In this document: positions 5,706 to 39,462 of the stretch, one piece after another
How the letters are laid out: each line of letters starts with the position of its first letter
Numbering within the stretch: the stretch's first letter is position 1
Origin: Defluviitaleaceae bacterium
GTDB lineage: Bacteria > Bacillota > Clostridia > Lachnospirales > WRAX01
Direction: 5' to 3'
Length of the DNA stretch: 64,000 bases
NCBI GenBank assembly: GCA_009780415.1
Contig: WRAC01000004.1
Coordinates: 10,512 to 74,511, forward strand
The notes under the pieces: generated by a model
The model's input: only the letters and a program-made list of their open reading frames with translations
Databases searched by the model: none
Told to the model about the DNA's origin: nothing
Made by a program: the position numbers and the translations under genes

Positions 5706-6739
5706 ACAGAACCGCGCTTATTAAAAAATTGACGGACGCGAACGGCCTCCCCGGCGACGAGGGCGAAATCCGCAATATAATTCGTACTGAACTTGAAGGC
5801 CATACGGACAGCATAATAACTGACCGCCTGGGCAACCTTATCGTAACCAAAAACAGCGGCAGGCCCGGTTTGCATATAGGGCTGTCAGCGCATATGGACG
5901 AGGTTGGCATGGCGGTTTTGCGTATAAACGAGGCCGGGCTGCTTACCATTGGCACATTCGGCGTTGACCCGCGCCTGCTGCCGTCTAAAATCGTTAGCAT
6001 CGGCAAAGACAAGGTGAAGGGCGTAATCGGCACGAAGCCCGTACACATGACAAAGCCGGATGAACGCGAGCGCGCCATTGATCTGGACGCACTGTACATT
6101 GACATCGGCGCTTCAACCAAGGAGGAAGCGGAAAAATCCGTTTCATTAGGCGATTTCGTTTATTTTGACAGTGAGTTTGTTGAATTCGGCGAGCGGAAAA
6201 TCAAAGCAAAGGCCTTGGATGACCGCCTCGGCTGCGCCGTGATGATTGAAATATTAAAATCCGACGTAAAAACGCCGATTACCGCCATTTTCTGCTCCCA
6301 GGAGGAAGTTGGGCTGCGCGGTTCAGCCGTTGCCGCCAACCGCGCGCATGTGGATGTGTATATAAACCTTGAAGGCACCGTTTCGGCGGACATGCCCTCA
6401 ACAGACGCGCATGAGAGGGTTACGGTTCTGGGCAAAGGCCCCGCGCTGTCGCTGATTGACCGCACTTCCGTTTATTTGAAAGAATATATAAATAAAATAG
6501 TGGCTGCGGCGGAAGAGAACGGAATACCGTACCAGTACCGCGCAACCGGAGCGGGCGGCACGGACGCCGCCAACTACCATGTAGCGCATGGCGGGACGCC
6601 CGTCATTGGATTGGCGACGCCTTGCCGCTACCTGCATTCTCCGGTAAGTGTCTGCGATTTACGCGATTATGAGAACACGGTTAAGCTGGTAAGAGCTTTT
6701 ATACAAAAATATGGAAATTCCGCTCGCGCGGAATCTTGA
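5696..6739 (+). CDS. M42 family metallopeptidase, paralog 2
   Basis: 347 aa. Overlaps paralog 1 by 10 nt. Motifs AHMDEVGMAV, LDDRLGCAVM, SQEEVGLRGS. Confidence 0.85.
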   Translation: MSVDRTALIKKLTDANGLPGDEGEIRNIIRTELEGHTDSIITDRLGNLIVTKNSGRPGLHIGLSAHMDEVGMAVLRINEAGLLTIGTFGVDPRLLPSKIVSIGKDKVKGVIGTKPVHMTKPDERERAIDLDALYIDIGASTKEEAEKSVSLGDFVYFDSEFVEFGERKIKAKALDDRLGCAVMIEILKSDVKTPITAIFCSQEEVGLRGSAVAANRAHVDVYINLEGTVSADMPSTDAHERVTVLGKGPALSLIDRTSVYLKEYINKIVAAAEENGIPYQYRATGAGGTDAANYHVAHGGTPVIGLATPCRYLHSPVSVCDLRDYENTVKLVRAFIQKYGNSARAES

Positions 6740-6793
6740 TTTATATTCTTTTTGGATTGCCAGCAAGAATCAAAAAACAGGGAGGATAAATAA

Positions 6794-7789
6794 ATGCCTA
6801 TAAACACGGCTGTATTAAAAAAAGTCTGCGAAGCCTTCGGGCCTTCGGGCCACGAGTGCCAAGTCCGTGAGGTTATCCTTGAGGACCTCAAGGGCTGTTA
6901 CGATGATTACCAGGTGGATGTCCTGGGTAACCTGATCGTTCATAAAAAAGGCGACGGGCCGAAAATTATGCTTGCCGGGCATATGGACGAAATCGGGTTC
7001 ATCGTGACGTATATTGAGGACGAAGGGTTTATCAGGTTTTCAAACATCGGCGGGTTCGACCCCTTCATGCTTGTTTCACGCCGCGTCATTTTCGCCAACG
7101 GCGTACAGGGCGTTATCCGTTCCGAGCGTCTGGAGAATTTCCGAACCGAGCTGAGCCAGAGCAAACTGTACATCGACATCGGCGCGCCAAACAAAGAGCA
7201 CGTGGAAAAGCTGGTAAAAGTCGGTGATGTCGCCGTTTATTCAGCTTCTTTCTACGCTGACGAATACAAAGTTATGACCCCGGCGCTGGACGACCGGGTT
7301 GGCTGTTTCATTATGATGGAAACCCTGAAACAGCTTAAAAACCCCAAATTTGACTGTTACTTCGTGTTTACCACCCAAGAGGAGGTCGGGCTGCGCGGCG
7401 CGAAAACCTCCGTCTATACAGTTGACCCCGATTACGGCCTGGCCTTCGACGTGACCGGCGCGTTCGACACGCCCAAAGCCCTCAAGTACTCCATGAAAAT
7501 GGGTGGCGGCGCGTGCATAAAAATCAAGGACGCAAGCGTTATCTGCCACAAGGCCATGATAGATTTCCTCACAAAAGTAGCCGTGGACAACAACATTAAA
7601 TACCAATACGAAATCCTCGATATGGGGGGCACCGACACAGGAGCCATCCATGTCCACAAATCCGGCGTTATCTCCGGCTGTATCTCAGTTTCGTCCCGCT
7701 ATATCCACGGCGACGCCGAAATGTGCGCCCAAAGCGATATAGAGGATTGCATAAACCTTACGGTCAAGGCGTTGGAGACGGGGATATAA
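6794..7789 (+). CDS. M42 family metallopeptidase, paralog 3
   Basis: 331 aa. Motifs GHMDEIGFIV, LDDRVGCFIM, TQEEVGLRGA. Confidence 0.85.
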   Translation: MPINTAVLKKVCEAFGPSGHECQVREVILEDLKGCYDDYQVDVLGNLIVHKKGDGPKIMLAGHMDEIGFIVTYIEDEGFIRFSNIGGFDPFMLVSRRVIFANGVQGVIRSERLENFRTELSQSKLYIDIGAPNKEHVEKLVKVGDVAVYSASFYADEYKVMTPALDDRVGCFIMMETLKQLKNPKFDCYFVFTTQEEVGLRGAKTSVYTVDPDYGLAFDVTGAFDTPKALKYSMKMGGGACIKIKDASVICHKAMIDFLTKVAVDNNIKYQYEILDMGGTDTGAIHVHKSGVISGCISVSSRYIHGDAEMCAQSDIEDCINLTVKALETGI

Positions 7790-7816
7790 ATATAAAATCA
7801 AAGCAGGCGCCGCGGC

Positions 7817-7852
7817 AAAAACCCCGCAAATCATCAATTTGCGGGGTTTTTG
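7817..7852. terminator. bidirectional rho-independent terminator
   Basis: CCCCGCAAAT (7822-7831) pairs with ATTTGCGGGG (7837-7846) around a 5-nt loop. An A-run precedes it and a T-run follows. It sits between convergent genes. Confidence 0.8.
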
Positions 7853-7857
7853 GTATT

Positions 7858-8736
7858 CTATATATCCAGTAAACCAATCAGAGTTCCCATACCCCCGATT
7901 TTCCGTGCAAGCATTGCCGACAAATCCTTTGCGTGTTCGCCGGAGCTTTTCTCAAGAAGTGAGGAGATTTCACTAAGCGCCAGCCCTTCCTCGCGGATTG
8001 CCCATTTCAAGCCCTCGCGAAGATTTACCGATGTGTTTATCTGCGTATCGCGGATTTCAAATTCCTTGCCCCTGTGGTTTTTATAAAATGAATTAAATAC
8101 GCGGCTGTTTTTACGGCAAGAATCCGCAACCCCGGTCAGAATGTTTCTTGTGGCTCCATTGCTAACGGCGGCCAGATGCTCGTAAAACAACGCCGCGTTC
8201 CGTTCGTTTTGCACACATTCGCCAAGCAGCTTAATGTCCGCTTCGTCTGCCCCGGGCATTTGGCCGGACATGGCGGCACTTGGCGGAGCAGGCAAAGGCT
8301 TGGATTGGTTTGCCGGATTATTTTGAGCCGGGGCGCTTTGAGCCGGAGCATTTTGAGCCGGTATACTTTGAGCGGGTACATTTTGAGCGGGTGCGTTTTG
8401 AGCCGCACCGCCTTGGGGCATGTTTCCAAACAATGATTCCACCGGCTCAAATGTAATGCCCATTTCCTCCGGTGTAGCCATTCTCTGGCCATGCTGGCCG
8501 GGCTGGCCATGTTGGCCGGGCTGGCCTTGTTGGCCTTGCTGCATGAACTGACCCGGCATCATTTGCTGCTGGCCTTGATTCCTCATATTCATCATGTTTT
8601 GATTCTGGTTTTGGTTCCTATATGGCGAAGGCTGCCTCTGTTGCGCGTTATATCTGTTATGCATGTTATATCCGTTCTGTCTATTATAGCTTGTGTTATT
8701 ACTTCCGCGGCTATTCGCGCGATATCCCGCCGCCAT
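7858..8736 (-). CDS. Q/N/P-rich repeat protein with helical ferritin-like C-terminal domain (possible spore/coat-associated protein)
   Basis: 292 aa. The N-terminal ~160 aa is low complexity (QNQNQNMMNMRNQGQQQ, GQPGQHGQPGQHGQ, 6x AQN[AV]P-type pentapeptides). The C-terminal ~130 aa is ordered (..ECVQNERNAALFYEHLAAV..). The function call is tentative. Confidence 0.55.
   Translation of the reverse strand: MAAGYRANSRGSNNTSYNRQNGYNMHNRYNAQQRQPSPYRNQNQNQNMMNMRNQGQQQMMPGQFMQQGQQGQPGQHGQPGQHGQRMATPEEMGITFEPVESLFGNMPQGGAAQNAPAQNVPAQSIPAQNAPAQSAPAQNNPANQSKPLPAPPSAAMSGQMPGADEADIKLLGECVQNERNAALFYEHLAAVSNGATRNILTGVADSCRKNSRVFNSFYKNHRGKEFEIRDTQINTSVNLREGLKWAIREEGLALSEISSLLEKSSGEHAKDLSAMLARKIGGMGTLIGLLDI
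8321..8410. repeat. coding tandem repeat, 6 units of 15 nt
   Basis: The core TTGAGC[CG]G recurs at 8323, 8338, 8353, 8368, 8383 and 8398, an exact 15-nt period. It encodes the PAQN(A/V/I) pentapeptide repeats on the minus strand. Confidence 0.85.
8485..8538. repeat. coding tandem repeat, 3 units of 18 nt
   Basis: CTGGCCATGNTGGCCGGG repeated three times (third unit degenerate). It encodes the GQPGQH repeats on the minus strand. Confidence 0.8.
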
Positions 8737-8799
8737 TGCACGACCTCCACGTCTTGCTGCTGTTTATTTATATGTATTCGTTGCGGATAGATTATGCTA

Positions 8800-9843
8800 C
8801 TATATTATGGTGCCGCCGCCCAGCACTATATCGCCATCGTATAGGACAACCGCCTGTCCCTTCGTTATGGCCCTTTGCGGTTTGTCAAACTCGATATATG
8901 CGGTTTCCGGCCCGGTTTGCCAGACCGTCGCCGGCTGCTCTTGCTGTCTGTATCGTGTTTTGGCATAAACACGCATGCTTCCTTCGAGGCAGTCAAACGC
9001 AATCCAATTCACACCGCGCGCAGACAGTTTTTTTTCGTACAAGTCGTCATTTTCACAAAGAGTTACGGTGTTTGACGCGGCATCCTTTCCCCCCACATAC
9101 ATGGGCTTGCCAAAAGCCGTCCCAAGCCCTTTCCTCTGCCCTATCGTATAACGCTGCTGCCCGGAATGCTTTCCCAGGTAATTTCCGCGCATATCAATAA
9201 AATCGCCTTCCTCAAACATCTGCCCTGTGTGTTTCTCGATAAATCCGGCATAATCGCCGTCCGGCACAAAGCATATGTCCTGGCTGTCCTGTCTGGAAGC
9301 CGCGCTGAGACCCAAGGCCGCCGCCATCTCGCGAATCTCGGCCTTGCGGCGTGTACCCAGCGGAAAAACCGCGCACCGAAGCTGCTCCTGACTTAGTCCG
9401 TACAACATGTAACTCTGATCTTTCCCGCCGTCCGCGGCTTTCTTCAGAATGACCCGGCCGCCGTCGCGGACGATAACGGCGTAATGCCCGGTAGCTATCT
9501 TATCAATGCCAAGCTCCGATGCGTAATTAAAAAATACCCCGAATTTTATATGTTTATTACAATCAACACAGGGATTGGGCGTAAAACCGTCCGTATAACC
9601 CCGGACAAAGCGCCTTACGACTTCTTTTTCAAATGATTCGGAGCAATCCGCTGCATAATGGCGCAAGCCCAGCTCCGATGCCGCCCGAGCCGCGTCCGCC
9701 ACAGCCGCCCGCGATTCCGGGGAATCAAAAAGCGCCATGGTCGCGCCGGAGCAGTCGTACCCGCCTTCTTTCAGCAAATATGCCGCAATTGTGCTGTCTA
9801 AGCCGCCGCTCATCGCCACTAGGATTTTCTCATTCGTTTTCAT
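8800..9843 (-). CDS. mnmA: tRNA 2-thiouridine(34) synthase MnmA
   Basis: PP-loop VAMSGGLDSTIAA. I moved the start to Met26 of the ORF (MKTNEKILV..), which gives an ATGA overlap with the maf stop at 9840-9843. Confidence 0.9.
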   Translation of the reverse strand: MKTNEKILVAMSGGLDSTIAAYLLKEGGYDCSGATMALFDSPESRAAVADAARAASELGLRHYAADCSESFEKEVVRRFVRGYTDGFTPNPCVDCNKHIKFGVFFNYASELGIDKIATGHYAVIVRDGGRVILKKAADGGKDQSYMLYGLSQEQLRCAVFPLGTRRKAEIREMAAALGLSAASRQDSQDICFVPDGDYAGFIEKHTGQMFEEGDFIDMRGNYLGKHSGQQRYTIGQRKGLGTAFGKPMYVGGKDAASNTVTLCENDDLYEKKLSARGVNWIAFDCLEGSMRVYAKTRYRQQEQPATVWQTGPETAYIEFDKPQRAITKGQAVVLYDGDIVLGGGTII

Positions 9844-10509: not shown

Positions 10510-10582
<73 letters not shown>

Positions 10583-10619
10583 TTTGCTGGTTTAAGCCCA
10601 GCCAATTATATCATTACCA

Positions 10620-10691
10620 GGCCCGTTGGTCAAGTGGTTAAGACACGGCCCTTTCACGGCTGTAACAGGGGTTCGAATCCCCTACGGGTCA
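10620..10691 (+). tRNA. tRNA-Glu (anticodon TTC)
   Basis: Acceptor GGCCCGT/ACGGGTC, anticodon arm CGGCC-CTTTCAC-GGCTG, T arm AGGGG-TTCGAAT-CCCCT. No encoded CCA. Confidence 0.9.
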
Positions 10692-10726
10692 CTTTTTATA
10701 TGGTTTGTTAATATAATATATTATTC

Positions 10727-10798
10727 GGCACCATAGCCAAGCGGTAAGGCGGAGGTCTGCAAAACCTCTATTCACCGGTTCAAATCCGGTTGGTGCCT
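10727..10798 (+). tRNA. tRNA-Cys (anticodon GCA)
   Basis: Acceptor GGCACCA/TGGTGCC, anticodon arm GAGGT-CTGCAAA-ACCTC, T arm ACCGG-TTCAAAT-CCGGT. No encoded CCA. Confidence 0.9.
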
Positions 10799-17322: not shown

Positions 17323-17445
17323 TAGGCTCTAATACCAAGTTGCAATCTAAATCACACTAACTCCGGACGGATGATCCAGTGCGCTCACGCTCAGGCCGGC
17401 TCATCCGCCCAGAGTAAGTGTTGCTTTGATTGCAACTTGGTATAA
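17323..17445. repeat. ~120-nt imperfect-palindrome (long hairpin) repeat element, copy 1
   Basis: Positions 17331-17445 match 27531-27645 at 113 of 115 positions by my reading (differences at 17367 and 17381). Outer stem is a 16-bp perfect pairing ATACCAAGTTGCAATC/GATTGCAACTTGGTAT. Inner stem is ~20 bp. Confidence 0.9.
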
Positions 17446-27487: not shown

Positions 27488-27516
27488 TTGCAGGAGCGGA
27501 TACGTTGTGATATAAT
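27488..27516 (+). promoter_or_regulatory. strong sigma-A type promoter (extended -10) of the lipoprotein/Sia-like operon
   Basis: -35 TTGCAG (27488-27493), 17-nt spacer ending in TGA, -10 TATAAT (27511-27516). The predicted transcription start falls at the left edge of repeat copy 2. Confidence 0.6.
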
Positions 27517-27522
27517 GGCTGG

Positions 27523-27645
27523 GTAGGCCTAATACCAAGTTGCAATCTAAATCACACTAACTCCGGGCGGATGATCCAGTACGCTCACGCTCAGGCCGGC
27601 TCATCCGCCCAGAGTAAGTGTTGCTTTGATTGCAACTTGGTATAA
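27523..27645. repeat. ~120-nt imperfect-palindrome (long hairpin) repeat element, copy 2
   Basis: Same orientation as copy 1, offset exactly 10,200 bp. Its inner stem pairs better than that of copy 1. Confidence 0.9.
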
Positions 27646-27685
27646 ACCGCGCATACCTCTCTTTGGCGCGGCTGGATTGGAGGCA

Positions 27686-28891
27686 ATGCAAATGAATCAT
27701 TTTCAAGGAAAGGCATGGGCTGCTTCCCGCCTTGCCGCCGTTTTTTTGACCATACTGCTTTTGTTAAGCGGCTGCGCGGCCCATGGCGGGTTCAAAACGG
27801 CTACGGCGGGCAACACCCCCGTCACCCGCGCCGGACAGCGCCACAGCTTCCCGCCTATCGTGGCAATAGATATAGGCGGCCCGGCCAGCGCGGCGCAATC
27901 CGACCTTAAAGTCGGGTTTATCTTCAACGGCAGGGTGGGCGACTTCGGCTTTACATACGCGCAAAACCAAGGCGCGCTTGCCCTTATCAGGGAGCTTGGA
28001 GTTGATGTGCTGACGAGGGAAATGGTTCCCCCCGACGAACAAAGCATGGACATTATGCAAGAGCTTATAGATGAAGGCTGCACCGTGATATTCTCGTGCA
28101 GCTTCGGTTTTATGGAATTTACGTACGCCATGGCGGAGAGGAACCCCGGCGTCCGCTTCTTCCACTGCTCCGGATATATGACAAGCGATAATATGTCAGC
28201 CTATTTCGGCAGGATGTACCAGATGCGGTACCTAACCGGCATCGTCGCGGGTCTTCGGACTGAAACAAACTTAATCGGCTACGTGGCGGCGCATCCCATA
28301 CCGGAGGTGCGCAGGGGCATTAACGCCTTCGCGCTGGGTGTGAAAAGCGTGAACCCGGACGCGGCGGTCAACGTTATTTGGACAAACTCGTGGCTGAACA
28401 CGGGTTTGGAGAGGGACCTCGCGCTGGAGCTGGTGCGGATAGGCTGTGACGTAATCGCCCAGCATCAGGACTCCCTGCTTCCCCAAATCGTCGCCGAAGA
28501 AGAGGGCATATGGGGAATAGGGTACAATTCCCCCATGGGCTTCTTTTCCCCGAACGCGTACCTGACCGGCGCCGTATGGAACTGGGGGCCGTATATGGTG
28601 GGCGAGGTCCGGAAGATAATCGACGGCACATGGGAAGCGTCGAATTATTGGGGCGGCCTTGAAACAGGCATTGTTATGCTTGAGGAACTGACGGAAAACG
28701 TCGCGCCCGGTACGCAGGAAGCCGTGGATGAGGCCATGCGGCGCATAATAAGCGGCTTTGACGTCTTTACCGGCCCGATATACGACAATATGGGCGGAAT
28801 ACGCGTCCCCGAAGGGCAAATCATGCCGGACAGCGAGAAGCTGTCAATTACTTGGTTTGTTGACAATGTAACGGAGGTGGGCGCCCCATGA
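27686..28891 (+). CDS. BMP-family (PnrA/Med-like) substrate-binding lipoprotein
   Basis: I moved the start to Met21/Met23 of the ORF (27686/27692, GGAGG RBS). Lipobox LLLLSGC. BMP-type pattern ..KVGFIFNGRVGDFGFTY..GYVAAHPIPEVRRGINAF... No ABC permease or ATPase gene is adjacent. Confidence 0.85.
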   Translation: MQMNHFQGKAWAASRLAAVFLTILLLLSGCAAHGGFKTATAGNTPVTRAGQRHSFPPIVAIDIGGPASAAQSDLKVGFIFNGRVGDFGFTYAQNQGALALIRELGVDVLTREMVPPDEQSMDIMQELIDEGCTVIFSCSFGFMEFTYAMAERNPGVRFFHCSGYMTSDNMSAYFGRMYQMRYLTGIVAGLRTETNLIGYVAAHPIPEVRRGINAFALGVKSVNPDAAVNVIWTNSWLNTGLERDLALELVRIGCDVIAQHQDSLLPQIVAEEEGIWGIGYNSPMGFFSPNAYLTGAVWNWGPYMVGEVRKIIDGTWEASNYWGGLETGIVMLEELTENVAPGTQEAVDEAMRRIISGFDVFTGPIYDNMGGIRVPEGQIMPDSEKLSITWFVDNVTEVGAP

Positions 28892-30480
28892 GTACGATGA
28901 TCAAGAATCTGAGCATCGGCAGGCGTTTGGCGCTTATAATGTGCTTTGCGTTTGTGATGATTATTATAACCGAAACAACGGGCCTGGTTAACAGCCGCCG
29001 ACTGGCGAATGAGATTAATCTGGGGTATGAGGCTATCACCCTTCCGCTGAAGGCAATCGCAAACGCCCGCGGCGAATTTAACGCCATGCGTACGGCTCTG
29101 CATGATCTGGCCTTCGATTTTAACACGGACGAGCAGAACCGCCGGTTTACGGCGGAAATCCTGCGGAATTTAAGCAATTTCGAGGATAATATAATACTTT
29201 ACAAGGAAATACTGGATATTTACGGCACAAACGCTCCCTATGAGCAGGAGGCTGTTGATTACCTGTACGGGATGCTCCTTCCCCTGCGCGAGTATGTGGA
29301 GCATATCATCCCGGTTGCGCAGAGGACGGGCTTTGAGGCCGACGTGGTACGAATCCTCCGGGGCGGCTTCCATGACGCTGCCGAGGATATATCGCTGGAG
29401 CTGATGCTTTTGACGGACATACTTGAGGCGCAGTCCAACGACGCGAACCTCCGCGCGGAAGCCCAGTTCAGGGATACGGTCATACTTTTCGCCGTCGTCC
29501 TCGCGGTCAGTATGATTATCCTCACATTAGGCACTTTGGTATTCGCCCGTTCCATAATAAAGCCCCTCCGCGAAATCACGGATACCGCCCTTGATTTGTC
29601 CAACGGGAACCTTGACACCGCGGACATCGGCTTCCACTCGAAAAACGAGCTGGGTATCCTGGCGGACAGCTTCCGGCATATGATACACGGCTTGAAGGCA
29701 AGGGAACTGATGATTTCCGGCATAACATACGCAAGCCAGATACAGCGGAGCCTTCTGCCGGCGGACAGCGTCTTTGCCGAAGCTTTTGCCGATCATTCCG
29801 TCATATGGGATCCCAAGGACATAGTGGGCGGCGATATCTACTGGATCAAGAATTTCGACGGCGGCGCAATCCTGTGCGTGTGCGACTGCACGGGCCACGG
29901 TACGCCCGGCGCGCTCCTGACGATGCTTGTCGTGTCAACCTTTGAAACCTCCGTGAACGAAACCAATTATATGGACACCGCCGCCGTTATTTGGGAGCTG
30001 GAGAAGCGGCTTACGGCGACGCTGAAGGTTGACGCGGACTCGGATGTAAAGGACGGCTGCGACCTTGCCGTTGTGTTTATCGCCAATGACGGAACCGTCA
30101 GCATATCGTCGGGGAACACCAACGTCTTTGTCTGCGACGGGCAAAAGGTTTCGCGGCTCAGGGGCCAGAGGATACGTGTGGGCGAGGGTTCGGTCAAGGG
30201 CAAGGATAAGATAAAGGTCACCACCGTCCCGGCGGATCCCGCGAATAAGTTCTATATCGCCTCCGACGGGCTGTACGAGCAGGTCGGCGGTGAGGAAAAT
30301 ATACCCTTCGGGTATGATATCATCAAAGAGATTATCCTTGAAAACCACGCCGAGACGCAAAGCGTTATATCGGAAAAGATATGGCGGGCGTTTGAGGCTT
30401 ACAGGGGTGATAACGCAAGGCGCGACGATCTTGAGCTTATAACCTTTATACCAAAAAACGGCAAGGAGGGCACAAACTAA
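28888..30480 (+). CDS. SiaA-like membrane sensor: four-helix-bundle ectodomain-HAMP-PP2C (SpoIIE/RsbU-type) phosphatase
   Basis: 530 aa. ATGA overlap with the lipoprotein stop. Two TM segments, HAMP (..IIKPLREITDTALDLSNGNL..), PP2C motifs ..VGGDIYW.. and ..CDCTGHGTPGALLTM... Confidence 0.85.
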   Translation: MSTMIKNLSIGRRLALIMCFAFVMIIITETTGLVNSRRLANEINLGYEAITLPLKAIANARGEFNAMRTALHDLAFDFNTDEQNRRFTAEILRNLSNFEDNIILYKEILDIYGTNAPYEQEAVDYLYGMLLPLREYVEHIIPVAQRTGFEADVVRILRGGFHDAAEDISLELMLLTDILEAQSNDANLRAEAQFRDTVILFAVVLAVSMIILTLGTLVFARSIIKPLREITDTALDLSNGNLDTADIGFHSKNELGILADSFRHMIHGLKARELMISGITYASQIQRSLLPADSVFAEAFADHSVIWDPKDIVGGDIYWIKNFDGGAILCVCDCTGHGTPGALLTMLVVSTFETSVNETNYMDTAAVIWELEKRLTATLKVDADSDVKDGCDLAVVFIANDGTVSISSGNTNVFVCDGQKVSRLRGQRIRVGEGSVKGKDKIKVTTVPADPANKFYIASDGLYEQVGGEENIPFGYDIIKEIILENHAETQSVISEKIWRAFEAYRGDNARRDDLELITFIPKNGKEGTN

Positions 30481-31049
30481 TGTTTGATATGATGGAATAC
30501 CACAAAACATTGCGGGATCATAAAGTCACGCTTGTTTACACCGGGCCGTTATGGGCCGAAGGTATAGGCGGCGTCGCGACTACGCTGAAAAAACGGCTGG
30601 AGTACGATAACCTGCCTTTAGAAACGTCACAGGAAGTGTTTTCGGTTTTTGTCGAGCAGATGAACAATATGCTGATGTACTCAAAGGAAAGCGAACTGTT
30701 TACAGCGCCGGATGACCTGCATTCCGCCGCTCCCAAGGGGACATTTATACTGGGGACTCTGGGCAAGGCGTATTATATCCATACCGGAAACATAATGAAG
30801 AATGACAGCGCGGAGCTTATCAAAAACCGCATCGACCATTTAAACACGCTGGATAAAAAGGAGCTGCGCAAATTCTTTAAGGAGCAGACGCGCCTTGAGG
30901 ACGACAACCCCGACAGCAAGGGCGCGGGCCTTGGGTTTATCGAGATAGCGCGGCGCATCAGCTCAAAGATAGAGTATGATTTCAAGCCTTATGAAGATGG
31001 GTATACGTTTTTTACGATGTACGTCACAATAGGAGGAGGGGCCGAATAA
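30480..31049 (+). CDS. SiaB-like small protein kinase (GHKL/anti-sigma-kinase-like)
   Basis: 189 aa. TAATG overlap with the upstream gene. ATP-lid-like GAGLGFIEIARR. Confidence 0.7.
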   Translation: MFDMMEYHKTLRDHKVTLVYTGPLWAEGIGGVATTLKKRLEYDNLPLETSQEVFSVFVEQMNNMLMYSKESELFTAPDDLHSAAPKGTFILGTLGKAYYIHTGNIMKNDSAELIKNRIDHLNTLDKKELRKFFKEQTRLEDDNPDSKGAGLGFIEIARRISSKIEYDFKPYEDGYTFFTMYVTIGGGAE

Positions 31050-31426
31050 TGCCATACCACTTGGAGAGAGCAAAGACCGATTTGACCCCTTACGTCCTTA
31101 TAGATGAGGAAAAAGGGTATATGAAGCTTGAGGGCGAAAGCTACCACGAGAATGTCTTCGAGTTTTTTCAGGAAATCCGGTCATGGCTCAGCACGTACCT
31201 AAAAACTGATTTTGATTCGTTTACCTTTGACTGTGAGCTTAAATACTTCAACAGCTCCACCGTAAAAATCCTCCTGGGTATGCTGCTGGAAATGGATGCC
31301 GCGGATAATAGCGGAAACATCACCGTGAACTGGATCACCACCAGAAACAACATGATTATCATTGAGTGCGGCGAGGACTTTGAAGAGGATTTGGAAAACC
31401 TTACGTTTAATCTTATTGCGAATTGA
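31049..31426 (+). CDS. SiaC-like DUF1987 partner-switch phosphoprotein
   Basis: 125 aa. TAATG overlap with the upstream gene. GESYHEN..FF and YFNSSTVK segments match my recollection of the DUF1987/SiaC signature. Confidence 0.75.
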   Translation: MPYHLERAKTDLTPYVLIDEEKGYMKLEGESYHENVFEFFQEIRSWLSTYLKTDFDSFTFDCELKYFNSSTVKILLGMLLEMDAADNSGNITVNWITTRNNMIIIECGEDFEEDLENLTFNLIAN

Positions 31427-31458
31427 TTTTTTACCGTTATTAACGGGGGGTCATTGAA

Positions 31459-32193
31459 GTGCCGGATATATTTGACCGTGAACAGGGCGTACTCGACGAT
31501 GCCTTGAACCATATCAGCGAGATCCGCGGCGGCGCGCCCGTATGCGCCGAGATGTTTGAAACCCTTGCGAAAGAGTACAGGATGCTGTTGAAGCAGCACC
31601 GGAAGGTTATCAAGATTTCCGACAGGGCCTCGTCGAACATGATAACCGACCAAAAGGGCCAGATTACCGATTTATCGGGAAAAGTACATATAGATATGCT
31701 TACGGGTATCTTCAACAGGCGTTATATGGAGGAAGCCCTGAACAGTGTTGTGAAAACAATGCAGCGTGCCGGCGGCGGGCTGCTCAGCGTTCTGATGATG
31801 GACGTTGATTATTTCAAGAAATACAACGATACGTACGGGCACGCGGATGGGGATGTCTGCCTTAAAGCCGTGGCCGGGGCAATCAAGGGCAGCCTGACGC
31901 GGGAGGACGATTTTACCGCAAGGTACGGCGGGGAGGAGTTTGCCGTCGTTTTGCCCAACACCGACGAGGACGGCGCGTGCATGATAGCCGAGAGGATACT
32001 CGAAAACGTAAGAAGCCGCAGAATTCTCCACGAAAAAAGCGAGGCGGCCCCTTATGTCACCGTGTCGATAGGCATTGCCACGGGGGATGTGCTGAACATA
32101 CAGACCGGCATGGAGTATATCAAATTCGCCGACGACGCTTTGTACCAATCGAAAGGAAACGGGCGTAACAGGTATACCGTAGGCAGACAGTGA
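31459..32193 (+). CDS. GGDEF diguanylate cyclase (SiaD-like)
   Basis: 244 aa with a GTG start after GGGGGG. Helical N-terminus, then DMLTGIFNRR, A-site GGEEF and an upstream I-site REDD (RxxD). Confidence 0.9.
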   Translation: MPDIFDREQGVLDDALNHISEIRGGAPVCAEMFETLAKEYRMLLKQHRKVIKISDRASSNMITDQKGQITDLSGKVHIDMLTGIFNRRYMEEALNSVVKTMQRAGGGLLSVLMMDVDYFKKYNDTYGHADGDVCLKAVAGAIKGSLTREDDFTARYGGEEFAVVLPNTDEDGACMIAERILENVRSRRILHEKSEAAPYVTVSIGIATGDVLNIQTGMEYIKFADDALYQSKGNGRNRYTVGRQ

Positions 32194-32211: not shown

Positions 32212-32909
32212 ATGCCGGCAGAAAACATGACACGCCGCCAGCGCGTACTGGCCGCCGTTAACCGCCAGATTCCCGACAGAATGCCCATCGACCTGGGTAT
32301 GCATTTTTCAACCGGGATATCGGCGTTCCCGACCATGTACAGATGCTGGCACGCGTACAGCGCGACGTCCTCGAACATTTCCGATGCGATACCATACTGC
32401 TTAACCCCGCATGCAAAAGCCCCGTCAAATGGGATGTACGCGAGGATTATTCGTTCTAGGTCTCCGATAAATCGGTGCCGGTTTTAAACGATAACGGCGA
32501 CTGGATTGTGTCCCGAAACGGCTTGTCCATGCGTATGCCCAAAGGCGGGTACTTTTTTGACGGCGATTGGCTGTCTGCAAATGAATATGCCGGTGAGGAC
32601 GATATCAAGGTATTCCTGCACGCATGCGGTTCTATCGAACCCCTGATTCCTTACATTATAGAAGCGGGCGTTGATATCCTGAACCCCGTGCAGATATCTG
32701 CCGCCAATATGGATCCCGCCGTATTAAAGGAGCGTTACGGGGATAAAATATGCTTCTGGGGCGGTGGCTGCGATACGCAAAGTATTTTGCCCAATCCCTC
32801 CCCCGATGAAATACGGGGGCATGTCCTTACGAAAACATTGCCGCCATGCTGGATACGGCTTATGAGGGGAGTTTTTATTAACCATCCTGTCAACGGAAAT
32901 AAATACTAA
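32212..32909 (+). pseudogene. decayed uroporphyrinogen-decarboxylase (URO-D) family gene
   Basis: An N-terminal fragment (RQRVLAAVNRQIPDRMPIDLG) ends in a frameshift near 32325. The homologous frame resumes (DHVQMLARVQRDVLEHF..) and hits an in-frame TAG at 32457-32459. It continues (..FLHACGSIEPLIPYIIEAGVDILNPVQ..) and shifts again near 32830 (ENIAAMLDTAYE in another frame). Total length is far below the ~340-370 aa expected. Confidence 0.75.
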
Positions 32910-33028
32910 TGTAAACCCATATACCGGACGATAGAATGTATATGACACGGAATGTAAATTTCTCCACGGATGGATGAGTCCGGGAGTCGTTTTTTTATAC
33001 GACAATTCTAATTCGGGGGTTGAATAGT

Positions 33029-34285
33029 ATGTTAATCAATAACCATTTCACCAGTTTCGCAAGCTTCAGCAGCATGAGTAAGCTGCATATGCAAAAAACG
33101 CAGTCCGTAACAAGCATCGGTAATTTTTTCGGGGCCAACGCCTCTTCATTAATGAAAAGCGCGCAGAACTTTGTTTCCGTGACCACTGTCCAAATGACGA
33201 GGATCAGCGTCACAATGAGCGCGTTTACCAGCAGCAGCCGCACTCTTTACGACAATAAAACCGCGGTGTCCGGCGACCCGGATTTATTGGAAATCAAATC
33301 CCATGACGGGAAAGGGTTTCAGGATAAAAAGGTAAAGATAGACCAGATTGCCACATCGCAGCAAAACACGGGCAAGATGATGAACGTGAACGCGAACCCC
33401 GGAACTCAAAAAGACAGTGTGTACCGTTTTGAAATTGAAGTGGACGGCGAAAGGCATGAACTGTCTTTTGAGGTTGATCATAAAGAAACAAACAAGGGCT
33501 TCCAGCAAAAGATGGCCGACGCGGTAAACGCGGCGGGTATAGGCGTCACCGCCTCCGTCATCACCGATAAAGACGGCAAAAACAGCATGCTTAGCCTGGA
33601 AAGCAAAGCCACGGGCGCAAACGAAAGCGGCGGCCCTCATTTCACCGTAAGGGATATACAAGGAAACGCGGTGGAGTATACGGGCGTCGGCACGGCGGCG
33701 CAGGAAGCAAAGGACGCCGTATTTTCCGTAAACGGCGAAAAGCGCACTTCCAAATCGAATGACGTTGACCTGGGCGACGGCGTTACCGCGACGTTGAAAA
33801 AGGCGTCAGACAAAGAGATTTCCGTAACACTTCAGAAGGATACCCAAGCCATGCTGGACGGGATGCACACTATGGTGAACAGTTATAACAAGATACTGGA
33901 AGCCGCAAGGAACAACCAAGGCGATAAGCACACAAGAATGTTTATGATGAGCTTTGAGCTGACGGTGGTATCCTCCAGAACCGTGCTTAAAGAAGTCGGC
34001 GTAAACGCAGACGAAAAGGGCTTCCTTTCCGTCGATTCCAAGAAGATGAAGGAAGCGGCGGAAAGCGGCGCGATAGAGCGGTTCTTTACGGGCGAAAAGG
34101 CAACCGGGCGCGGTTTTATCGGTCAGCTGGGAAAACTCATCAACGATTTCCATAAAAACCCGTGGCAGTTTGTAAGCCCGGCATTGGGCAGGCTGCCTAT
34201 GCACGGCACGTTGATTGGCGATAACGGGTTTAACGGTTCAAGCCCCTTTGAATTACTGCATAGGATGCTTGATATAAAAGGATAA
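33029..34285 (+). CDS. FliD-like (flagellar cap / hook-associated protein 2-like) protein, paralog 1
   Basis: The start is probably ATG 33029, with GGGGG 9 nt upstream. FliD-type central and C-terminal pattern: ..KIDQIATSQQNTG.., ..AVFSVNGEKRTSKSNDVDLGDGVTATL.., ..VNSYNKILEAA.., ..GVNADEKGFLSVDSKKM... The canonical FliD N-terminal segment was not recognised. Confidence 0.5.
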   Translation: MLINNHFTSFASFSSMSKLHMQKTQSVTSIGNFFGANASSLMKSAQNFVSVTTVQMTRISVTMSAFTSSSRTLYDNKTAVSGDPDLLEIKSHDGKGFQDKKVKIDQIATSQQNTGKMMNVNANPGTQKDSVYRFEIEVDGERHELSFEVDHKETNKGFQQKMADAVNAAGIGVTASVITDKDGKNSMLSLESKATGANESGGPHFTVRDIQGNAVEYTGVGTAAQEAKDAVFSVNGEKRTSKSNDVDLGDGVTATLKKASDKEISVTLQKDTQAMLDGMHTMVNSYNKILEAARNNQGDKHTRMFMMSFELTVVSSRTVLKEVGVNADEKGFLSVDSKKMKEAAESGAIERFFTGEKATGRGFIGQLGKLINDFHKNPWQFVSPALGRLPMHGTLIGDNGFNGSSPFELLHRMLDIKG

Positions 34286-34311
34286 TTTACGGTTAAAGGG
34301 TGTTTTAAAGG

Positions 34312-35142
34312 GTGAAGAAAGGGTTTATATCATTTGCAATGGCGTTGTTGAGCGTACTTATTCCCGCCGCGGAAATCGCGGCGGGTTATCCCGTTATCCC
34401 GGAAGCCGGCGAACACTTTGAAATTTACAGCATTGAGGGAACCGCCGGTTCGGTGACGGGCCAAAGATGGGTGAATATGCTTGCGTGGCGCGAACAGGCT
34501 CGCGTATTGGCGCAGCGGTACCGCGATATCGTGTTTGTAAACATGGATCCCGCCGATAACGCCGTATACCTCACATTCGACGACGGCCCCGACACCGCGA
34601 ACACGGTCAAGGTAATGAGCATATTGAAAGAATACGGCGTTACGGCCACTTTCTTCTTCACGGGGTCGAACATCGAGAGGCACCCCGCCGTGGTTAAGCA
34701 AGCCCATGACGCCGGGTTCGCCATAGGGCTTCACAGCTGCAGCCACGCCCGCATGACAGAGCTTACCGAAGATGAAATACTGTCCGAGCTGAACAGGAAC
34801 AATGATTTACTGGAGACGGCAACAGGCGCGCGGTCTGGGATTATGCGCCCTCCCTTCGGGGCTTTGGGCGATAGGGAGATAGAAATAATAGATAATTCAG
34901 GCCTCCGGATATATCTGTGGTCAATTGATACCTTGGATTGGGCGCAGAGCGACCCTTCCGAAATTCTGCGAAACATAAAGGATTACATCCGCCCCGGCGA
35001 CATAATCCTTATGCACAGCGGCCCGGGCCAATCCAAGAGCGCTGAGATACTGCCGTCTGTTATTGAGTTTATACGGGACGCGGGCTATGAAATGAGGGCG
35101 CTCCCGGTTACAGCCCCGCCTTCTTCATGTTATCAAAACTGA
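34312..35142 (+). CDS. polysaccharide deacetylase family protein (NodB domain), secreted
   Basis: GTG start and a signal peptide. NodB motifs YLTFDDGPD and GLHSCSH. Confidence 0.85.
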   Translation: MKKGFISFAMALLSVLIPAAEIAAGYPVIPEAGEHFEIYSIEGTAGSVTGQRWVNMLAWREQARVLAQRYRDIVFVNMDPADNAVYLTFDDGPDTANTVKVMSILKEYGVTATFFFTGSNIERHPAVVKQAHDAGFAIGLHSCSHARMTELTEDEILSELNRNNDLLETATGARSGIMRPPFGALGDREIEIIDNSGLRIYLWSIDTLDWAQSDPSEILRNIKDYIRPGDIILMHSGPGQSKSAEILPSVIEFIRDAGYEMRALPVTAPPSSCYQN

Positions 35143-36828: not shown

Positions 36829-39462
36829 TTATTCAGTCCTTAAAGCCACGACGGGGTCTTTCTTCGCCGCCATTTTCGAGGGGATAAAACCCGCTATAAC
36901 TGTTAGGATTATGCTTATTACAATCAAACCGGCGGCGCCGTAAGCGGGCAGGGAGGATAATCCCGAAACGCCCGCTAAGGAACTGATAATGGCGTTAACC
37001 GGGATGTTCAGCAAAATTGTGACGCCAACGCCCAACGCTCCGGCTACAAACCCCTCAATAACGGTTTCGGCGTTGAATACCCGCGTGATATCCTTCTTTG
37101 ACGCGCCTATGCTTCGCAGGATTCCGATTTCCTTGGTGCGTTCCAGTACGGAGATATAGGTGATAATCGCGATCATAATGGACGACACCACAAGGGAGAT
37201 GGCGACGAAGGCGATTAAAACGTAGGATACAATACCTATAATTGACGAGATGGAAGAGGTCATAAGCCCGACAAAATCCGTGTAGTTAATGACATATTGT
37301 TCGCTTCCGGCAAGTTCATGGGCATTGTTATAATCCTCAATAAGCGCTTCCAACCTTGTTTTCGAATCAAAATCCCTGGGGTAAAGCCTGACGGAGCTTG
37401 GGTTGTCGAAATCCGCTATGCCCAAAACCGTTATATTGTCCTCAAATGTTGATGCGTCCGCGGCGGAGTTCGCCCTCATCCGTTCGGCAAACATAGCGAT
37501 AACCTGCTCCTCGCTCATCACCGCAAACATCATTTTAGCCTGTGTTTGCTCAGCTTCGGGCAATTCAGAGATAATTGCATTGATATCGTCAATAGTCAAA
37601 TTGTCAATGAAATCCTCTATATCAAAGGCATGGCCTGTGAAAACATTGATTTCGGGGTCGGCAAGCTGCGCTTTCGCTATATCCGTTTCAAGGACCGCGC
37701 CGATAACATATTCGGTCAGGGCGGAGGTATATCCGACAGAACCGCTGATTGAAGCGGCGGCCGCATCGCCGGACGGCTTGATAATGCCCACAACCCTCAG
37801 TTCAAGGGCATTCCCGACAGCCGATATCATAAACTCCTCATTATCACGCATATCTTCCCAACCGTTGTCCCTCCGCTCATAAAAGTCCGTATTTAGCAGA
37901 AGCTTGAACGTAAGCGAAAGCAGCTCGTCGAAGGTAAAGCTGGTTTCCGGGCTGTCCTCAATTTCCTCTCCGCGCATTACCTTTCTCATCAGTTCGTCGA
38001 TTTCACCCGAATCCATCAACCCAAGGGCATAAAGGGTCATATCGCTCAGCTCGTTATTCCGGCTTGCTACCAGCACTATTTCATTAAAGGCTTGCGGCCA
38101 GCGCCCCGCCAAAACGTCGTATTGAGAGCTAAGCAAATCTTTATTGTCCAGCATCTCCGTCCAAATCTCCATACCGCCGCCCATACCCATGTTCATGCCG
38201 CCTATGCCGCCGCCGTTCATGCCCGTATTTGCGAAAACCTCGCTGGGGTTGACCTGCGTAATGCCGCCGGACGTGTCCGCTTTGAATATTTGAAGCTCCA
38301 CATCATACCCGTATTTTATCGTGTTCGTCAGATTATGGAATTGCCCGTCCGAATCATTCTCAATGTGCCGTTTGAACGCGGCAAGGTCGTTATGTTGAAT
38401 TTGCGCGCTTACCGACTGTACCATATTTGTCGCTATTTTGTTGGCGTAAATCCTGTCGGGCTCGCGTTCGCCCGCTGCCCCGCCCCTGCTGCTGTCCATC
38501 ATTAAAGCCATCATGCCGCCCATGTCCATTGAATGGCTCAAAATCTCAATAGGATATGTAGACAGTGTATCCCGTTCTAAGTTATTCACATATCCCTGCA
38601 TACCGCTTGAAAGGGATAGGATCAGCGCTATGCCGATTATTCCGATGCTTCCGGCAAAGGCGGTGAGGATAGTCCGGGTCTTTTTCGTCAGCAGATTCTT
38701 AAAGCTTAATCCCAGAGCCGTTGTAAAGGACATGGAGATTTTCCTGCGTTTAACTTTTTCTTTTTTTACCGCCGGCCTTTCGCTTATATAAGGGTTCGAG
38801 TCGTCTACTGCCTTACCGTCCAGCAGCTTAATGATACGCGTGGAATATTTCTTCGCTATGTCAGGGTTGTGCGTAACCATGATAACCAGGCGGTCTTTAG
38901 CGATTTCCTTCAAAAGCTCCATAATCTGCAAGCTTGTTTCCGAATCCAGCGCGCCCGTCGGCTCGTCCGCCAAAAGAATCTCGGGGTTGTTCACAAGGGC
39001 CCGGGCAATGCTCACCCTTTGCATCTGCCCGCCTGACATCTGTGTGGGCTTTTTGTTTATTTGGTCGCCAAGGCTTACTTTTTCCAGCGCCTCGATTACC
39101 CGCCTGTGCCTTTCCGCGCGCGAAACCCCGGCTAAAGTCATGGCAAGCTCGACGTTGGTATAAACGGTCTGATGGGAAATCAAATTATAGCTTTGGAACA
39201 CAAAGCCGATGGAATTATTACGGTAGATGTCCCAGTCCACGTCTTTATATTCCTTCGTTGAAACGCCGTTTATAACGAGGTCGCCGCTTGTATATCTGTC
39301 AAGGCCGCCGATGATGTTAAGCATTGTGGTCTTTCCGCATCCCGACGGGCCTAGGATGGACACAAAATCACTTTTGCGAAATTCCAGGCTTACTCCCTTT
39401 AACGCTTCAATGCGCGTATCGCCCATGATGTAGGTTTTTACGATGTCATTTAATTGCAGCAT
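36829..39462 (-). CDS. fused ABC transporter ATP-binding protein/FtsX-type permease (MacB-like)
   Basis: 877 aa. Walker A GPSGCGKTT, signature MSGGQMQRVSIARAL, Walker B LLADEPTGALD. A large extracytoplasmic domain lies between TM1 and the C-terminal FtsX-like TM bundle. Confidence 0.9.
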   Translation of the reverse strand: MLQLNDIVKTYIMGDTRIEALKGVSLEFRKSDFVSILGPSGCGKTTMLNIIGGLDRYTSGDLVINGVSTKEYKDVDWDIYRNNSIGFVFQSYNLISHQTVYTNVELAMTLAGVSRAERHRRVIEALEKVSLGDQINKKPTQMSGGQMQRVSIARALVNNPEILLADEPTGALDSETSLQIMELLKEIAKDRLVIMVTHNPDIAKKYSTRIIKLLDGKAVDDSNPYISERPAVKKEKVKRRKISMSFTTALGLSFKNLLTKKTRTILTAFAGSIGIIGIALILSLSSGMQGYVNNLERDTLSTYPIEILSHSMDMGGMMALMMDSSRGGAAGEREPDRIYANKIATNMVQSVSAQIQHNDLAAFKRHIENDSDGQFHNLTNTIKYGYDVELQIFKADTSGGITQVNPSEVFANTGMNGGGIGGMNMGMGGGMEIWTEMLDNKDLLSSQYDVLAGRWPQAFNEIVLVASRNNELSDMTLYALGLMDSGEIDELMRKVMRGEEIEDSPETSFTFDELLSLTFKLLLNTDFYERRDNGWEDMRDNEEFMISAVGNALELRVVGIIKPSGDAAAASISGSVGYTSALTEYVIGAVLETDIAKAQLADPEINVFTGHAFDIEDFIDNLTIDDINAIISELPEAEQTQAKMMFAVMSEEQVIAMFAERMRANSAADASTFEDNITVLGIADFDNPSSVRLYPRDFDSKTRLEALIEDYNNAHELAGSEQYVINYTDFVGLMTSSISSIIGIVSYVLIAFVAISLVVSSIMIAIITYISVLERTKEIGILRSIGASKKDITRVFNAETVIEGFVAGALGVGVTILLNIPVNAIISSLAGVSGLSSLPAYGAAGLIVISIILTVIAGFIPSKMAAKKDPVVALRTE

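Follow-up and report, generated by a model that had tools for sequence, protein, structure and literature searches.

A Bmp-family lipoprotein as the probable input of a Sia-type partner switch in a Clostridia-like genome

Introduction

A stretch of 64,000 nucleotides (nt) from a Defluviitaleaceae bacterium (assembly GCA_009780415.1, contig WRAC01000004.1, positions 10,512 to 74,511), referred to here as the window, raises the question of what a substrate-binding protein (SBP) of the Bmp family does at the head of an operon for a Sia-type partner switch, a phosphatase/kinase circuit that controls a cyclic di-GMP (c-di-GMP) cyclase. From comparisons of genes, sequences and predicted structures, this operon probably encodes an SBP-dependent Sia-type partner switch, and the comparisons support the view that a Bmp protein of the purine-transporter type acts there as the dedicated partner of a membrane sensor that would steer the c-di-GMP switch.

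Sia systems control aggregation and biofilm formation. In the SiaABCD system of Pseudomonas aeruginosa (PA0172-PA0169), a phosphatase and a kinase set the phosphorylation of SiaC, unphosphorylated SiaC activates the cyclase, and the product binds the I-site (PMC7647112, PMC8457831). Surfactant stress, the availability of carbon and perturbation of the membrane have each been linked to activation of P. aeruginosa SiaA, the last being the cause given in a 2025 paper in the Journal of Biological Chemistry (PMC12834913), and the accessible portions of these sources name no chemical ligand. A first-pass annotation of the window had proposed that the lipoprotein at the head of the operon, described as a nucleoside binder of the BMP/PnrA type, serves as an input to such a switch in a Gram-positive context.

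Organization of the operon

Five open reading frames (ORFs) run in the same direction on the + strand, as had been annotated, and profile searches with Pfam and NCBIfam assigned their products to the families expected of them, namely Bmp, four-helix bundle (4HB)-HAMP-PP2C, the SiaB family, SiaC/DUF1987 and GGDEF (Table 1). All the peptide motifs quoted in the first-pass annotation were located at the expected places. The first three junctions also proved exact: ATGA at 28888-28891 and TAATG at 30478-30482 and 31047-31051 join overlapping genes, each with GGAGG upstream, and the claim that the Bmp gene is translationally coupled to the next three genes agrees with these overlaps as read in the sequence. 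The SiaC-SiaD junction is non-overlapping: the two genes lie 32 nt apart, and the cyclase gene begins with GTG at 31459. Only the beginning of the first gene had to be moved. It had been placed at 27488, but the longest ORF begins at 27626, and the preferred start is ATG 27692, which lies 8 nt past a GGAGG (27679-27683) and agrees with the 399-amino-acid (aa) product called in public assemblies and contigs.

Table 1. Positions of the operon genes, their domains and motifs, and the leader elements in the window
Feature	Position	Strand	Basis or remark
Extended -10-like promoter element (candidate), TGATATAAT	27508-27516	+	Read from sequence, upstream of operon
Imperfect palindrome, ~117 nt, 5′ leader	27529-27646	n/a	Fold z-score -6.9
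Bmp-family lipoprotein, 399 aa	27692-28891	+	PF02608, 173.7 bits
Lipobox LLSGC, Cys28, end of signal peptide	27761-27775	+	Sequence
Tether motif, FKTATAGNTPVTRAGQRHSFP	27791-27853	+	Clade-specific, a few residues after the lipobox
SiaA-like transmembrane (TM) phosphatase: TM1, 4HB ectodomain, TM2, HAMP, PP2C	28888-30480	+	Pfam
4HB ectodomain, ~residues 36-196, proposed Bmp docking site	28993-29475	+	Family comparison
VGGDIYW, phosphatase gene	29824-29844	+	Motif
CDCTGHGTPGALLTM, phosphatase gene	29881-29925	+	Quoted motif
SiaB-family protein kinase (DUF6272)	30480-31049	+	NF038262, PF19788
GAGLGFIEIARR, kinase gene	30921-30956	+	Quoted motif
SiaC-family phosphoprotein	31049-31426	+	PF09345, 116.2 bits
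GESYHEN, SiaC-family gene	31133-31153	+	Motif
YFNSSTVK, SiaC-family gene	31244-31267	+	Motif
Ser69 of SiaC-family protein	31253-31255	+	Aligned with P. aeruginosa SiaC phospho-site T68
SiaD-like diguanylate cyclase: 76-aa N-terminal segment, GGDEF domain with GGEEF, RxxD I-site	31459-32193	+	GGDEF, 157.9 bits
REDD (RxxD I-site), cyclase gene	31900-31911	+	5 residues before GGEEF
GGEEF, cyclase gene	31927-31941	+	Motif

A sensor-linked clade of Bmp proteins

Homologues of the Bmp protein are abundant (3982 at E <= 1e-10). In a neighbor-joining tree of 120 of these homologues together with 3S99 and AtzT, a single clade of ~30 sequences takes in every sensor-linked Bmp protein. Downstream DNA is readable for 12 members of this clade, L024 and L025 being counted separately, and in all 12 the next gene after Bmp encodes a TM-4HB-TM-HAMP sensor, the ectodomain being the same throughout. 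Outside the clade, by contrast, genes for an ATP-binding cassette (ABC) ATPase and permease follow the Bmp gene in 6/6 informative loci (L004, L015, L016, L017, L019 and L022). No Bmp-type ABC genes were found in the 12 clade loci within the flanks read, and no Bmp-type ABC ATPase or permease in the whole 64-kb window, where the only match was a MacB-like ABC gene (36829-39462) whose product is 24% identical; the statement that the lipoprotein gene has no ABC permease or ATPase nearby therefore holds over this distance for the Bmp type. A metagenome scan with the Bmp protein yielded six loci, one of them a clade member and the rest ABC-linked or uninformative.

The Bmp gene and the sensor gene are not only adjacent but also co-inherited. 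Distances between Bmp proteins correlate with those between ectodomains (Mantel r = 0.61, p = 0.001), and in 12/12 loci an SBP gene adjoins, and is inherited with, the gene of a receptor bearing an extracytoplasmic sensor domain. The Bmp-sensor stop/start overlap is kept in 7/9 fully read pairs; it is the 4-nt ATGA in the window, L001, L003, L025 and L026, 4 nt with a GTG start in L023 and 20 nt in L021. The genes that flank the pair differ in every locus. Two possibilities that would have undermined the first-pass annotation, that the adjacency is a recent accident and that the lipoprotein and SiaA-like genes are not conserved together, are thus answered by the relatives.

One input with four outputs

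Sia genes are only one of the settings in which the pair occurs. The Bmp gene is followed by a 4HB-HAMP-PP2C phosphatase gene and Sia genes in the window (SiaB, SiaC and SiaD), L001/L002, L003 (Deltaproteobacteria bacterium Smac51), L023, L024 and L025, and by the phosphatase gene and the end of the contig in L026. The sensor is a 4HB-HAMP-GGDEF protein in L020, a 4HB-HAMP-LytS-type kinase encoded together with two response regulators in L021 and a 4HB-HAMP-MCP chemoreceptor in L028, and in L014 the contig ends after the first 88 aa of the sensor. Nevertheless, the Bmp-linked ectodomains are 45-73% identical across nine pairs, with long shared motifs, regardless of the output, and the N-terminal 270 residues of the window phosphatase share 50-54% identity with the N-terminal parts of the L020 GGDEF and L021 kinase sensors. 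When 1.84 billion representative proteins were searched exhaustively with phmmer, only 10 relatives of the ectodomain appeared at E <= 1e-10; this search replaced a word-index homology search with the 215-aa ectodomain, which returned nothing, probably because such an index copes poorly with a query that is both short and divergent. The nine strongest matches (P0121-P0129) carry SpoIIE (four), GGDEF (two), His_kinase (one) and MCPsignal (two) as outputs. It was predicted in advance that the MCP member would have a Bmp gene of the clade upstream, and this was confirmed at L028, where a Bmp gene lies 34 nt upstream of the chemoreceptor gene and its product is 70% identical to the clade members P0020 and P0024.

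Because the ectodomain is shared, the outputs are of four kinds and the MCP prediction was confirmed, what is conserved is a rare cassette of two genes on the input side, made up of the Bmp gene and a 4HB/HAMP sensor gene and joined to four kinds of output. The proposal that the Bmp protein is a Sia input thus stands insofar as its gene is coupled to that of the SiaA-like phosphatase, but its partner is the 4HB ectodomain and not the Sia module as such. Indeed, the ectodomains of L007 and L009, which are 4HB Sia phosphatases without a Bmp neighbor, show no significant similarity to the Bmp-linked ones. Records that bear the names Oscillospiraceae and Deltaproteobacteria bacterium Smac51 contain the cassette, as do loci with Mla genes, and it therefore spans monoderms and diderms; the window itself is Clostridia-like, as annotated, but the Gram-positive context does not extend to the cassette as a whole.

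Where the pair is joined to Sia genes, their order is A-B-C-D in the window and A-D-B-C in all the other Bmp-linked Sia loci (L001, L003, L023, L024 and L025). In L001, the last 4 nt of siaC are shared with a gene for a hybrid histidine kinase, itself followed by a response-regulator gene.

A genome scan with SiaA found nine Sia loci (L005-L013) in metagenome-assembled genomes, all without Bmp, which from the isolate names we take to be termite-gut bins. Bmp is therefore one of many Sia inputs. The phosphatases of these loci bear dCache (L005), EAL-CBS (L011), HAMP-PAS (L012), HAMP arrays (L008 and L010) or an unrelated 4HB domain, and that of L013, with 309 aa, has no sensor domain. In the Treponema loci L005 and L006 the gene order is A-C-B, without an adjacent cyclase gene and with a gene for a 1400-aa hybrid kinase upstream. 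In L009 (Fibrobacteria metagenome-assembled genome LIUI01000009), the start of a 4HB-HAMP-PP2C SiaA-like gene (7344-8921) has a 4-nt overlap with a gene for an NlpA/MetQ-like protein of 196 aa (6757-7347). This short protein, whose match to the Lipoprotein_9 profile is confined to the first lobe, may represent a second SBP family recruited to a Sia phosphatase.

The ligand pocket

The window protein has a two-lobed Bmp fold preceded by a signal peptide and a lipobox, whose Cys28 is conserved in at least 90% of the sequences (alignment A2), and its AlphaFold2 (AF2) model has a predicted local distance difference test score (pLDDT) of 88.7. Among solved structures, 3S99 (1.4e-74) and AtzT (1.8e-65) are nearest to it in sequence. 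AtzT binds guanine (Kd 110 nM) and adenine (2.5 uM), and adenine was modelled in the structure of 3S99, a Brucella protein (PMC6834077). With TM-scores normalised to target length, the AF2 model fits 3S99 and AtzT at 0.95 (root-mean-square deviation 1.3-2.0 A) and PnrA at 0.77-0.83; the nucleoside binders PnrA, BmpD and Lbp taken together lie at 0.77-0.86 and are 17-24% identical.

The AtzT contacts Y45, S97, F98, E165, W194, N218 and N220 correspond to F87, S137, F138, E205, W234, H258 and D260 of the window protein. The same pattern is seen in 3S99 and is kept throughout the sensor clade, in which the stacking residue is an invariant Phe. At the level of residues, a pocket for a purine or nucleoside thus appears to be present, and its retention argues for ligand binding over a purely structural role. 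Because fold and pocket fit 3S99 and AtzT rather than PnrA, the ligand is likely to be a purine base, and a nucleoside is less likely. The first-pass description of a nucleoside-binding lipoprotein was accordingly right about the family (PF02608) and is to be amended as to the ligand.

The tether motif

Shortly after the lipobox, the clade carries a motif that we call the tether, with the consensus K-x-x-[TS]-x(2,3)-[TSI]-[PF]-x-x-[RLK]-x(2,3)-R. It is present in 26/26 full-length clade members against 0/91 transporter-type Bmp homologues, and the Bmp protein of L028 has a one-residue variant of it. In the AF2 model the tether is mostly disordered (pLDDT <50 at residues 27-41 and 50-62) while the core is confident. 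Since it is conserved without predicted packing, this segment could be a partner-binding linear motif, most simply one for the sensor. Altogether, 18 positions, the tether included, are conserved in the clade and different in the transporter-linked relatives, which suggests an altered partner surface. To this extent, a clade-specific tether motif after the lipobox is a feature that has not been described before.

Four clade Bmp proteins (P0032-P0034 and P0010) lack the lipobox Cys and keep the tether motif, whose conservation is therefore independent of lipid anchoring. One of them, P0033, belongs to a locus with Mla genes (L024).

The Sia-type module

The phosphatase contains 4HB_MCP_1 (residues 7-193), HAMP (218-270; 48.5 bits) and SpoIIE (325-518; 48.9 bits), and is matched by the PP2C domain of P. 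aeruginosa SiaA (6k4e) at 1.2e-33. The catalytic residues reported for SiaA are D457, D474, G477, D600, G601 and D653 (PMC7647112), and the window phosphatase keeps all the residues aligned to them. The kinase scores 162.9 bits with NF038262, SiaB_fam_kinase (cutoff 85), and 130 bits with PF19788, although it reaches only 91 with the SiaB equivalog model (cutoff 225); P. aeruginosa SiaB (6kko_A) matches it at 7.3e-15. The product of the fourth gene is matched by P. aeruginosa SiaC (6k4f) at 6e-13. Its Ser at the T68 position is invariant in 15/15 relatives, of which 14 have YFNSS[TS] and L006 has YLNSST. The third and fourth genes thus do belong to the SiaB and SiaC/DUF1987 families, as annotated, and the best, or the sole, sequence match in the PDB to the products of genes 2, 3 and 4 is in each case a P. 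aeruginosa structure. The fifth gene product is, as had been read, a GGDEF protein with GGEEF and an RxxD I-site (REDD).

Proposed mechanism

In the mechanism that we favor, the lipid-anchored Bmp protein would bind a small purine-like ligand, most likely a purine base, in the pocket between its lobes. In its liganded or its unliganded form, it would then dock on the 4HB ectodomain of the SiaA-like phosphatase, an interaction that the flexible tether may help. The signal would pass from the ectodomain through TM2 and HAMP to PP2C, and docking may turn the phosphatase either on or off. By homology to P. aeruginosa SiaABC, the opposing activities of PP2C and the SiaB-family kinase would set the phosphorylation of SiaC Ser69. 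By homology to SiaC-SiaD, unphosphorylated SiaC would bind the N-terminal stalk of the cyclase and switch on c-di-GMP synthesis, and the RxxD I-site would subject the cyclase to feedback by its product.

For the broader proposition, the chances seem to us evenly balanced: that the Bmp clade, together with a 4HB ectodomain private to it, makes up a hitherto unrecognized, self-contained purine-sensing cassette, docked through a disordered tether and plugged into four outputs, and would represent the first defined chemical input to a Sia system as well as the first PP2C phosphatase under SBP control.

Several points tell against this mechanism. The 12 loci are phylogenetically related, and 12/12 does not stand for 12 independent events. 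Physical contact between the Bmp protein and the sensor is proposed from the comparison of genes and sequences. The phosphatase scores 175 bits with the SiaA equivalog model, against a cutoff of 700, and the C-terminal part alone is aligned; it is therefore not an orthologue of full-length PA0172. The SiaC and SiaD equivalog models likewise score below their cutoffs (84.7 against 150, and 160.8 against 290 with residues 31-239 aligned). A PDB search with the N-terminal 85 aa of the cyclase alone gave nothing significant, the stalk of P. aeruginosa SiaD included, and activation through a SiaC-stalk contact is therefore proposed from the context only. The four-part logic of SiaABCD claimed for the operon accordingly stands for the SiaA-, SiaB- and SiaC-type parts together with a GGDEF protein but does not amount to orthology, and the module is, by these profile scores, Sia-type and not an orthologue of PA0172-PA0169. 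Finally, the same pocket residues occur in transporter-linked relatives, from which the ligand specificity of the clade is indistinguishable by the pocket, and a cognate ABC importer may be encoded elsewhere in the genome.

Alternative explanations

The last two points lead to the explanation that the Bmp protein has a dual function, supplying an ABC importer encoded elsewhere with purines as well as signalling through the sensor, like MBP, RBP and ChvE. Many known signalling SBPs do serve transporters as well (PMC8050422), and the pocket is identical to that of the transporter-linked relatives. This explanation is nevertheless unlikely, given that 0/12 loci have Bmp-type ABC genes in the flanks read and that the 18 clade-conserved positions, with the tether among them, differ in precisely those relatives.

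A ligand-independent role has also to be weighed, in which the lipoprotein would be an accessory for the stability, localisation or basal activity of the sensor and the real signal would be perceived by the 4HB domain or the membrane. Med of Bacillus subtilis, a protein of the same family (2hqb, 6e-21) that is reportedly needed for KinD activity, would be comparable, and P. aeruginosa SiaA is reported to respond to membrane perturbation (PMC12834913). Conservation in the clade of all the residues that contact purine in AtzT and 3S99, with an invariant stacking Phe, is hard to explain without binding, and makes such an accessory quite improbable.

That an orphaned transporter gene came to lie upstream of a Sia operon by chance is effectively refuted by the neighborhood survey, and we consider it highly improbable: Bmp genes are abundant and operon rearrangements are common, but the sensor is downstream in 12/12 cases within the clade and 0/6 informative cases outside it, and the overlap persists among unrelated flanks and four output classes, with an advance prediction confirmed. 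Identities of 50-80% and differing gene orders likewise speak otherwise than for a single, recently spread mobile fragment.

Comparison with known systems

Like the P. aeruginosa system, the window operon encodes a TM-HAMP-PP2C phosphatase, a SiaB-family kinase, a SiaC/DUF1987 protein and a GGDEF cyclase with an I-site, in the order A-B-C-D, and shares with it the catalytic Asp/Gly residues and the position of the phospho-site. It differs in having a translationally coupled SBP gene upstream and a distinct 4HB_MCP_1 ectodomain subfamily, in a phospho-site that is Ser instead of Thr, and in an N-terminal cyclase segment that, taken alone, is not detectably similar to that of SiaD.

The Bmp protein shares with 3S99 and AtzT (6PI5) its fold (TM-score 0.95), and its pocket Ser, Phe, Glu, Trp, His and Asp are as in 3S99. 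Unlike these two proteins, it has the tether motif, the invariant stacking Phe and clade-specific surface substitutions; AtzT is periplasmic and thought to act in uptake, whereas no ABC partner is encoded near the gene for the window protein.

A signalling protein of the Bmp family has, to our knowledge, only one precedent, namely Med (PDB 2hqb), a distant relative that is ~24% identical to the window protein. According to what Banse reportedly found in 2011, KinD of B. subtilis needs Med for its activity, so that here too a Bmp-family lipoprotein would have a membrane sensor, and not a transporter, as its partner. The sensor domain of KinD is not known to be a 4HB, and its output is a histidine kinase. 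We know of no conserved gene adjacency and no ligand established for Med-KinD.

Signalling from an SBP to a 4HB domain is itself known from Tar-MBP, LytS-XylFII and GlnX-GlnH-PknG, and XylFII and GlnH are encoded beside their receptors (PMC8050422). In Tar-MBP, LytS-XylFII and GlnX-GlnH, as proposed here, a two-lobed binding protein reports to a 4HB ectodomain, but these SBPs come from families other than Bmp. A 2021 review of SBP-stimulated receptors distinguishes thirteen SBP families and four receptor classes, and lists no SBP-stimulated PP2C phosphatase or partner switch; in a term search of its text, 'Bmp' and 'PF02608' were absent and 'phosphatase' occurred once, in the introduction (PMC8050422). 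In the collection of papers searched, there was no description of a Bmp-sensor cassette, a link between Bmp and c-di-GMP or an SBP-controlled PP2C partner switch. What is new here is the Bmp-type input; the Sia-type switch and the SBP-4HB logic are already known.

If the proposed reading holds, the Bmp family would be added to the SBP families that signal to receptors, and PP2C phosphatases to the receptor types under SBP control. The operon would be a Sia variant with a soluble, easily purified binding protein as its input and a predictable class of ligand, which would give a Sia-type biofilm switch a testable chemical input. The reuse of one input cassette with four outputs is, moreover, a clean natural example that should be useful for the design of chimeric sensors.

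Leader and flanking genes

Upstream of the operon, TGATATAAT may be an extended -10-like promoter element; it is a candidate that the consensus scan omitted, and no -35 hexamer matches. The palindrome that follows has a second copy at 17329-17445, which is 98% identical, and both copies lie in intergenic leaders. It matches no Rfam family at threshold and has no copies in the related loci. A riboswitch upstream of the Bmp gene is ruled out by the lack of an Rfam match together with the nearly identical copy, which marks it as a dispersed repeat, and the palindrome resembles a repeat of the miniature inverted-repeat transposable element (MITE) or repetitive extragenic palindromic (REP) type.

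Right after the cyclase gene, two overlapping ORFs (32212-32487 and 32475-32909) with their own AGGAG have no Pfam match at 1e-3 and have the appearance of a single gene broken by a frameshift. Close to the downstream end of the operon (window 33020-35142) lie a FliD-like gene, with a partial FliD_C match, and a polysaccharide deacetylase gene, which are possible c-di-GMP-relevant neighbors. A polysaccharide deacetylase gene (6209-7156) is also found in L001 (Oscillospiraceae), where it lies upstream of the Bmp gene. Farther away, the window contains a cluster of three tRNA genes (10510-10798).

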